Source: Escherichia coli
Lineage (GTDB): Bacteria; Pseudomonadota; Gammaproteobacteria; Enterobacterales; Enterobacteriaceae
Assembly (NCBI RefSeq): GCF_029227855.1
Contig: NZ_CP074356.1
Strand: one strand, 5' to 3'
Length of the DNA stretch: 64,000 nt
A model generated the notes under the pieces. It was given only the letters and a program-made list of their open reading frames with translations. It was not told the origin of the DNA and did not search any database. The position numbers were made by a program, and so were the translations under genes. Every line of letters starts with the position of its first letter. The stretch's first letter is position 1. This document shows, in pieces, positions 58,290 to 60,130 of this stretch.

Positions 58290-59447
58290 TTGAAACGTAG
58301 TTTGCTTTTTTCTGCCGTGCTGTGTGCGGCGTCATTGACCTCCGTCCATGCGGCGCAGCCGATCACTGAACCGGAGTTCGCCTCTGATATTGTCGATCGT
58401 TATGCCGATCATATTTTTTACGGCAGCGGTGCCACGGGGATGGCGCTGGTTGTTATCGACGGTAACCAGCGCGTCTTTCGCAGTTATGGCGAAACGCGAC
58501 CTGGTAATAACGTTCGCCCGCAGCTGGATTCGGTCATACGTATTGCTTCCCTCACCAAGCTAATGACCAGTGAGATGCTGGTGAAATTGCTCGACCAGGG
58601 GACCGTGAAGTTAAACGATCCGCTAAGTAAATATGCTCCGCCAGGCGCACGCGTGCCAACCTACAATGGGACGCCCATTACGCTGGTGAATCTGGCAACC
58701 CATACCAGCGCCCTGCCCCGTGAACAGCCCGGTGGCGCGGCACATCGTCCGGTATTTGTCTGGCCAACGCGCGAGCAACGCTGGAAATACCTTTCCACTG
58801 CCAAACTAAAAGCCGCGCCGGGCAGCCAGGCCGCGTACTCCAACCTCGCATTCGATCTGCTGGCAGATGCACTGGCGAATGCGTCCGGCAAGCCTTATAC
58901 CCAGTTGTTTGAAGAGCAGATTACCCGTCCATTGGGGATGAAAGACACCACCTACACCCCCTCGCCGGACCAGTGCCGCCGTTTAATGGTTGCAGAGCGC
59001 GGTGCCAGTCCATGCAATAACACGCTGGCGGCAATTGGCAGCGGCGGCGTCTATTCCACGCCTGGCGATATGATGCGCTGGATGCAGCAGTATTTGTCAT
59101 CTGATTTTTATCAGCGCAGTAACCAGGCTGATCGCATGCAGACGTTGATTTATCAGCGAGCGCAGTTTACAAAAGTGATTGGCATGGATGTCCCCGGCAA
59201 AGCGGATGCGCTTGGTTTAGGCTGGGTATATATGGCCCCGAAAGAGGGTCGTCCAGGGATTATTCAGAAGACAGGTGGTGGTGGCGGTTTCATTACCTAT
59301 ATGGCGATGATCCCGCAGAAGAACATTGGCGCATTTGTGGTGGTCACTCGTTCGCCATTGACGCGCTTTAAAAATATGAGCGATGGCATCAATGACCTGG
59401 TGACCGAACTGAGCGGGAATAAACCGTTGGTCATCCCCGCGTCCTGA
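58290..59447 (+). CDS. ampH: penicillin-binding protein AmpH (class C beta-lactamase-like carboxypeptidase/endopeptidase)
   Basis: 385-aa ORF with signal peptide and S-x-x-K motif (ASLTK). Confidence 0.95.
   Translation: MKRSLLFSAVLCAASLTSVHAAQPITEPEFASDIVDRYADHIFYGSGATGMALVVIDGNQRVFRSYGETRPGNNVRPQLDSVIRIASLTKLMTSEMLVKLLDQGTVKLNDPLSKYAPPGARVPTYNGTPITLVNLATHTSALPREQPGGAAHRPVFVWPTREQRWKYLSTAKLKAAPGSQAAYSNLAFDLLADALANASGKPYTQLFEEQITRPLGMKDTTYTPSPDQCRRLMVAERGASPCNNTLAAIGSGGVYSTPGDMMRWMQQYLSSDFYQRSNQADRMQTLIYQRAQFTKVIGMDVPGKADALGLGWVYMAPKEGRPGIIQKTGGGGGFITYMAMIPQKNIGAFVVVTRSPLTRFKNMSDGINDLVTELSGNKPLVIPAS

Positions 59448-60130
<683 letters not shown>

Follow-up and report, generated by a model that had tools for sequence, protein, structure and literature searches.

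Analysis of the window, by which we mean the whole 64-kb stretch of Escherichia coli DNA examined here, located two convergent genes by an open reading frame (ORF) list and by RefSeq annotation:

58290..59447, plus strand: ampH coding sequence (CDS), 385 aa, with a TTG start and a TGA stop at 59445-59447; its product is a DD-carboxypeptidase/endopeptidase.
59448..60071, minus strand: iprA (= yaiV) CDS, 207 aa from the RefSeq start.

The name yaiV is the older one; iprA is current, the RefSeq product being "hydrogen peroxide resistance inhibitor IprA", and the homologs named IprA carry PF15977. The longest iprA ORF has 222 aa and reaches 60116, the RefSeq start giving the shorter protein of 207 aa. 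The window sequence of the plus strand at 59440-59450 is cgtcc TGA TTA a; read on the minus strand, the TTA at 59448-59450 gives TAA, the stop codon of iprA in the ORF list. The stop-to-stop spacer is thus exactly 0 nt and, unlike overlapping tail-to-tail genes, which share CDS nucleotides, the E. coli pair has no base common to both CDSs. An earlier note on this DNA had claimed that the ampH and yaiV stop codons abut without a spacer, and both the sequence and RefSeq bear this out. The same abutment is found in RefSeq for a near-identical strain (ampH 3773377..3774534, iprA 3774535..3775158) and for K-12 MG1655 (iprA 394506..395129, ampH 395130..396287), and since RefSeq places both CDSs on adjacent bases, it is already part of the standard annotation. 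When complete E. coli genomes were searched by BLAST with a threshold of at least 80% coverage of a 600-bp junction sequence, the junction was found in 5384 of 5426; between K-12 and the window 1 of 90 junction positions differs, and it lies outside the junction elements described below. Because intergenic room is lacking altogether, a complete transcript of either gene necessarily runs past the 0-nt junction and into the opposing gene, as the earlier note had also held, and the 3' ends of the two mRNAs are necessarily complementary.

Orthologous loci were taken from one-genome-per-species contigs (22 loci) and, for 10 more, found through IprA homologs. The stop-to-stop distance was between −4 and +13 nt in 30 of 33 orthologous iprA-ampH junctions. 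A distance of 0 nt was common to all Escherichia, C. sedlakii, C. rodentium, Raoultella, and two C. amalonaticus, and one of 1 nt to ten Citrobacter. Trabulsiella had 2 nt, two distant Citrobacter-like genomes 3 nt, Pseudenterobacter 5 nt, and Yokenella 13 nt. In Enterobacter cloacae and Kluyvera the CDSs overlap by 4 nt. Longer spacers were seen in two Salmonella (42-44 nt) and in one C. amalonaticus, where a GC-rich insertion makes a spacer of 157 nt. Judged from these distances, the exact zero spacer is not conserved; what is ancestral to the family is tail-to-tail packing within about a dozen bases.

The earlier note had gone on to state that there is no room for a terminator. This holds for intergenic room, of which there is none; the step from there to a missing terminator did not stand, since a hairpin and a U-rich tract are embedded in iprA:

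59457-59493, plus strand (ampH-sense RNA): hairpin T1, within iprA codons 193-205, located as an inverted repeat and by folding.
59459-59467 (AAGGCAAAC) and 59483-59491 (GTTTGCCTT): core arms of T1, a perfect 9-nt inverted repeat.
59468-59472, paired with 59477-59481: inner stem of T1.
59490..59500, plus strand: U-rich tract UUUAUUCAUUU, antisense to iprA codons E191-K194.

T1 starts 10 nt beyond the TGA of ampH, on the ampH strand; in 30 of 33 orthologous loci it is placed alike, 0-13 nt further on. Folding extended the 9-nt repeat to 16 pairs at −20.9 kcal/mol (z = −6.6), compared with −6.6 ± 2.2 kcal/mol for dinucleotide shuffles; T1 also folds on the minus strand, at −14.8 kcal/mol (z = −3.9). 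The core repeat is A-U-rich (5 A-U and 4 G-C/C-G of 9 pairs), and the U-rich tract, 8 U of 11 with interruptions, adjoins and overlaps the 3' arm, its first U's pairing into the base of the stem. Hairpin and tract together sit wholly within the last 17 iprA codons, 191-207. In a window-wide, fold-based scan of both strands of the 64 kb, T1 ranked ninth of 41 hairpin-plus-U-tail sites, among the sites at gene ends. Of T1, the built-in terminator scan picked up no more than the inner 5-bp stem, in a different register; its loop limit of 8 caused it to miss the full hairpin. A classical terminator discriminant score gave a marginal value and was set aside, and a scan of 58000-60400 on both strands against Rfam 15 gave no match at E ≤ 1.

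T1 resembles an intrinsic terminator in being a stem-loop followed by a U-rich tract shortly past the stop codon of the same strand; it has the stem and the position of one and, in part, the U tract. It departs from one in its A-U-rich stem with a long apical part, in the interruptions of its U tract, and in lying wholly inside the opposing CDS. Two junctions between 44 and 64 kb have intrinsic terminators that overlap a convergent neighbor much as T1 does; this comparison was limited to that range, over which the window is collinear with the annotated strain WP4-S18-ESBL-07, there being indels before about 44 kb. The strong proC terminator, at about 49752-49792, is inside the 3' end of adrA, with a spacer of 16 nt, and the ddlA terminator overlaps the end of yaiZ, with a spacer of 23 nt. 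The embedded, dual-coded T1 is a fresh example of an arrangement already known. As a conserved hairpin with a U-rich tail is present in iprA, the ampH–iprA junction is an ordinary, compact, already annotated product of genome compaction rather than one devoid of a candidate terminator.

The iprA codons that overlap these elements are conserved in an unusual manner. Over 18 species, synonymous codon entropy was 0.40 bits in the last 17 iprA codons versus 1.15 elsewhere in the gene, making these codons the lowest of 133 sliding windows. In the same codon alignment the codons of the T1 arms and the U tract were invariant or nearly so, whereas loop codons 198-200 varied freely; residues 168-190 of IprA are equally conserved, yet their synonymous sites also varied freely. 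To assay pairing, 28 sequences from about 10 enterobacterial genera, 27 of them distinct, were aligned without gaps. Across the 27 distinct sequences 88.9% of T1 cells were paired, as against 29-56% when the 3' partners were moved by 1-3 columns, and the T1 covariation score was reached in 0 of 500 shuffles, a control that leaves in the phylogeny of these related sequences. Double changes occurred at 5 T1 pairs. Pairs 13-43 and 19-37, which connect nothing but third codon positions, change from A-U to G-C; these two G-C double changes run toward higher GC3. When the alignment was read in the iprA frame, three T1 pairs were found to link third positions only (P204/K194, L203/G195, and R202/K196); 81 of their 81 cells were paired, and in several genera two of the three have gone from A-U to G-C, G·U intermediates also occurring. 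The codon for Pro204 is CCT or CCC, never CCG. CCG is the preferred proline codon in E. coli, and at this position it could not pair within T1.

Two further comparisons distinguished the strands. Read on the ampH-sense strand, 13 one-sided changes in the 12 core pairs gave G·U and one gave A·C; this count is not phylogenetically independent, and we estimate that it represents roughly 10 G·U events versus 1 A·C. Since G·U on the plus strand corresponds to A·C in iprA mRNA, this bias indicates that T1 is kept for ampH-sense RNA. When the codons for the last 20 IprA residues were resampled synonymously 2,000 times, the native plus-strand fold beat 99.3% (codon-usage-weighted) to 99.8% (uniform) of the recodings, whereas the native minus-strand fold beat just 88-92%. 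In C. farmeri an IprA paralog lies away from ampH, and there the hairpin is degraded, the region folding at −12 kcal/mol. The U tract is invariant in all Escherichia, Citrobacter, and S. diarizonae, has one change in S. bongori, and is weakened or lost in Raoultella, Yokenella, Kluyvera, Enterobacter, and Pseudenterobacter; in Enterobacter and Pseudenterobacter the tract is lost and the T1 stem persists. In S. diarizonae T1 is kept despite an extra canonical terminator in the 44-nt spacer. Together, these alignment-based comparisons argue for a T1 that is conserved beyond the requirements of the IprA protein and selected as an element of ampH-sense RNA.

We consider it probable, from these sequence comparisons, that T1 is a 3' element of ampH embedded in iprA and that iprA, with no conserved terminator of its own, ends by the action of Rho. 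The ampH-sense RNA would fold T1 and then continue into the U-rich tract, with the same DNA encoding IprA residues 191-207 on the other strand, and T1 would most likely serve as a moderate Rho-independent terminator, as a stem protecting the 3' end of ampH mRNA, or as both. Such an mRNA would carry some 50 nt of 3' UTR, all of it complementary to the end of the iprA message, and a working T1 would limit ampH read-in to about 50 nt. With an A-U-rich stem and an interrupted U tract the efficiency of T1 may be low, and the persistence of the stem where the U tract is lost suggests that what is conserved may be a function in pausing or in protecting the 3' end, not canonical termination. With the extra terminator of S. 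diarizonae also in view, T1 may act by pausing polymerase or stabilizing RNA rather than by releasing transcripts efficiently. Transcripts of ampH that escaped T1 would continue as untranslated antisense RNA, presumably curtailed by Rho.

Three features bear on transcription in the iprA direction and on the far end of iprA:

59413..59440, minus strand (iprA-sense): hairpin GCGGGGAUGACCAACGGUUUAUUCCCGC, just past the iprA stop, with a weak U tail, located by folding.
59201..59343, minus strand: candidate Rho loading region, located by a composition scan.
60087..60120, strand unassigned: T2, a second conserved hairpin, AAUGCCCGUCAA-AUCC-UUGACGGGCAUU, in the ehaB-iprA gap.

The stretch holding the hairpin at 59413..59440 lacks conservation between species, and the 3'-terminal codons of ampH display no synonymous constraint (1.13 versus 0.97 bits, rank 273 of 333 windows); we therefore rejected the candidate of a conserved iprA terminator within ampH. 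With no such conserved counterpart there, we infer Rho-dependent termination of iprA, most economically within a few hundred nucleotides. The candidate loading region begins 105 nt and ends 247 nt past the iprA stop, on iprA-sense RNA that is untranslated, and has 31-38% C and 15-19% G; iprA transcripts would probably run 100-400 nt into antisense ampH and stop in a Rho-dependent manner at this C-rich stretch. For the ampH-sense RNA past T1, the composition scan found no comparable C-rich, G-poor stretch in the first 300 nt. The published table of Rho-dependent regions has no entry for the iprA-sense strand at this locus (PMC7815308). T2 is either the 5'-terminal stem-loop of iprA mRNA or a plus-strand stop for transcripts antisense to iprA. 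The yaiV promoter is located in the same gap (PMC3946193), and by our own alignment of the published hexamers its −10 coincides with the AT-rich flank of T2, which would put T2 at the 5' end of iprA mRNA and weakens the case for T2 as a dedicated plus-strand terminator.

Two explanations would deny T1 a role in ampH. The constraint on the end of iprA might be a by-product of its C-terminal peptide (EMNKGKL..INRLP), codon bias, and shared ancestry, without any nucleic-acid function. The amino acids there are highly conserved, the sequences are related and their phylogeny survives in the shuffles, and the G-C double changes match the GC3 shift; nevertheless, the free synonymous variation at the equally conserved residues 168-190, the avoidance of the non-pairing CCG at Pro204, the complete pairing of the three third-position pairs, and the finding that just 0.2-0.7% of synonymous recodings fold as well all oppose this explanation, which we hold to be very improbable. 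Somewhat less improbable, though still quite unlikely, is that T1 serves iprA, whether as a stem-loop near the 3' end of its mRNA acting in stability or translation termination or as a palindromic DNA site for a protein, its placement past the ampH stop being incidental. The minus-strand fold is in keeping with this, as are the persistence of T1 without a U tract in Enterobacter and Pseudenterobacter, its retention in Salmonella alongside another candidate terminator in the spacer, and the C. farmeri paralog, which by our own count keeps 10 of 12 core pairs. On the other side stand the G·U bias of 13:1, which amounts to A·C mismatches in iprA mRNA and is asymmetric for a DNA palindrome, the significance of the synonymous recoding result for the plus strand only, and the asymmetric reach of the conservation into the U tract, on the side downstream of ampH.

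The remaining alternative, which we regard as unlikely but less so than the other two, is that the junction has no functional terminator and that deep read-in in both directions, with antisense RNA and polymerase collisions, cross-regulates the cell-wall enzyme gene ampH and the oxidative-stress regulator gene iprA. The zero spacer speaks for it, and no 3' end is listed at the junction in the curated Term-seq data, which have neither an ampH or yaiV entry nor any coordinate in 3950xx-3951xx (PMC7815308); such absence is as expected for poorly expressed genes. Neither gene is listed in the SMRT-Cappable-seq tables. At K-12 395316, which is window position 59261, a published genome-wide bicyclomycin experiment places a region of Rho termination for the ampH-sense strand, with a Rho score of 2.48 (p = 5.5e-5) from low read counts in 800-nt windows, too coarse to locate the event (PMC7815308 suppl. 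2). Untreated DirectRNA-seq gave 56 reads upstream and 57 downstream of this position and the downstream signal rises with bicyclomycin, both of which favor this alternative, but the counts are too low and the windows too coarse for read-through to be demonstrated. The same region fits Rho limiting the continued untranslated RNA antisense to iprA. In K-12 the transcripts of 276 of 370 convergent operons (75%) have overlapping 3' ends, with a mean overlap of 286 nt (PMC4161252), and a collision-driven termination model has been published for convergent pairs (bioRxiv 10.1101/2022.10.23.513370). Both favor read-in, and as convergent overlap is the rule in E. coli, 3' overlap is not special to abutting genes. 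Against this alternative are T1 and its U tract with their synonymous constraint, covariation, and strand bias. iprA is silenced by H-NS, its promoter being listed as associated with H-NS and FNR regulation of yaiV being seen only in the absence of H-NS/StpA (PMC3946193, PMC3688515), and ampH expression under laboratory conditions is modest (PMC4183435), so that collisions between polymerases should be rare; in addition, no phenotype is known to connect ampH and iprA. We consequently keep to an ampH 3' element embedded in iprA as the preferred reading.

Several known systems have features in common with this junction. Overlapping bidirectional terminators between convergent gene pairs were reportedly described by Ju et al. 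in 2019; as in that type, a hairpin in the region common to both transcripts could pause polymerase and complementary 3' ends are expected. T1 differs in lying upstream of the iprA stop and in having no U tract on the iprA strand, and as iprA transcripts ending there would lose the stop codon or barely include it, T1 is not a clean two-way terminator. The ilvA/ilvY genes are convergent overlapping transcription units (cited in PMC4161252), likewise with transcripts complementary at their 3' ends. Their overlap arises from leaky intergenic terminators, whereas that of ampH and iprA, with a spacer of zero, is structurally obligatory. The term excludon, from work in Listeria, denotes a long antisense UTR covering a divergent or convergent neighbor. 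Read-through of T1 would similarly make ampH RNA antisense to all of iprA, up to T2; in contrast to an excludon, ampH and iprA have no known functional opposition, and Rho appears to limit the RNA. It is conceivable, as a speculation, that polymerases paused at T1 would run into those transcribing iprA, at a point 15 codons short of the iprA stop. A still bolder proposal, and the least probable of those considered here, is that T1 is a deliberately leaky dual-coded switch, either passing ampH RNA antisense over iprA as far as T2 when ampH is highly transcribed or T1 is bypassed, or causing collisions that truncate the iprA message. If true, an inhibitor of peroxide resistance would be silenced in step with the expression of an enzyme that trims peptidoglycan, in an excludon-like circuit conserved in Enterobacteriaceae.

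At the end of iprA a single stretch of DNA is subject to two constraints: one strand encodes the C-terminus of a regulator, and the other a candidate structured 3' element for the RNA of the opposing gene. The evidence is conservation at synonymous sites, covariation at third positions, and a wobble signature specific to one strand. Recoding gene ends synonymously, as in genome refactoring or codon optimization, could unintentionally alter the expression of a neighbor. Terminator catalogues and pipelines discard intragenic predictions (bioRxiv 10.1101/2024.07.17.603904), so embedded elements such as T1 go unlisted and convergent junctions with zero spacer may be misread as lacking a terminator. 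An ortholog in Salmonella exists for fewer than 20% of E. coli terminators (bioRxiv 10.1101/2024.07.17.603904), and against this background the conservation of T1 over about 10 genera is unusual; it is probably owed in part to the embedding of T1 in coding sequence.

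The stop codons of ampH and iprA (yaiV), which abut in the window, are separated in Salmonella by an insertion of 42-44 nt; in one C. amalonaticus (S646) an insertion of 157 nt also replaces the AmpH C-terminus. These insertions, in the coordinates of the respective orthologous iprA-ampH loci, are as follows.

L020 3125-3168, Salmonella diarizonae: canonical terminator, 11-bp stem followed by AUUUUUGUU
L028 2625-2666, S. bongori: degenerate form of the terminator
L011 3125-3281, C. amalonaticus S646: 157 nt, GC-rich

The S. diarizonae terminator lies in tandem with the embedded hairpin, that is, the hairpin of the ampH-sense RNA within the last iprA codons. 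At two other convergent junctions of the window, proC/adrA (49743-49792, spacer of 16 nt) and ddlA/yaiZ (54749-54787, spacer of 23 nt), a + strand terminator hairpin overlaps the last coding bases of the gene on the facing strand, and these are further cases of the same compaction as that at ampH/iprA. One database protein among the IprA homologs, P0070 (259 aa), carries a beta-lactamase domain (PF00144), yet is 100% identical to IprA, a match that covers 61% of the query. A chimeric or wrongly called gene model that runs across the zero-spacer ampH/iprA junction is the probable source of this protein.

Upstream of iprA, the window contains an autotransporter gene and, in the gap between the two genes, a second conserved hairpin.

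60157-63105, - strand: intact autotransporter gene, 982 aa, named ehaB in a near-identical strain
60087-60127, ehaB-iprA gap: hairpin AAUGCCCGUCAA-AUCC-UUGACGGGCAUU, stem of 12-15 bp

Compensatory changes were found in the versions of this hairpin from C. rodentium (arms CCCAUCAG/UUGAUGGG) and Yokenella (arms CCCACCAU/AUGGUGGG). Its U-rich flank is carried on the + strand, where no annotated gene ends at the hairpin, and in our own alignment to the published hexamers (PMC3946193) this flank falls on the −10 region of the yaiV promoter. Given that alignment, the 5' end of the iprA mRNA would hold the hairpin, which could act as a 5' stabilising stem, as a stop for antisense-iprA transcripts, or as both.

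The K-12 counterpart of the window's ehaB is yaiT, a pseudogene interrupted by IS3. An autotransporter gene was present upstream of iprA in most genera examined, and likewise upstream of the iprA paralog of C. farmeri; the regulator seems to travel together with an autotransporter.

At the other end of the pair, synonymous variation among 16 species was very low over the first 14-20 ampH codons (codons 1-20, 58290-58350), at 0.20-0.41 bits relative to a gene mean of 0.97, the lowest windows in ampH. The start codon was TTG in all 16. This pattern points to some conserved feature, of the RNA or of translation initiation, across the signal-peptide region.

Relative to the best-matching strain, WP4-S18-ESBL-07 (NZ_AP022087.1), collinearity was absent before ~44 kb (1-44000), with breakpoints at ~21-23 kb and ~28-29 kb in record coordinates, and indel offsets added up to 2,236 bp. 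The non-collinearity and offsets in this alignment indicate strain-specific insertions or deletions within 1-44000.
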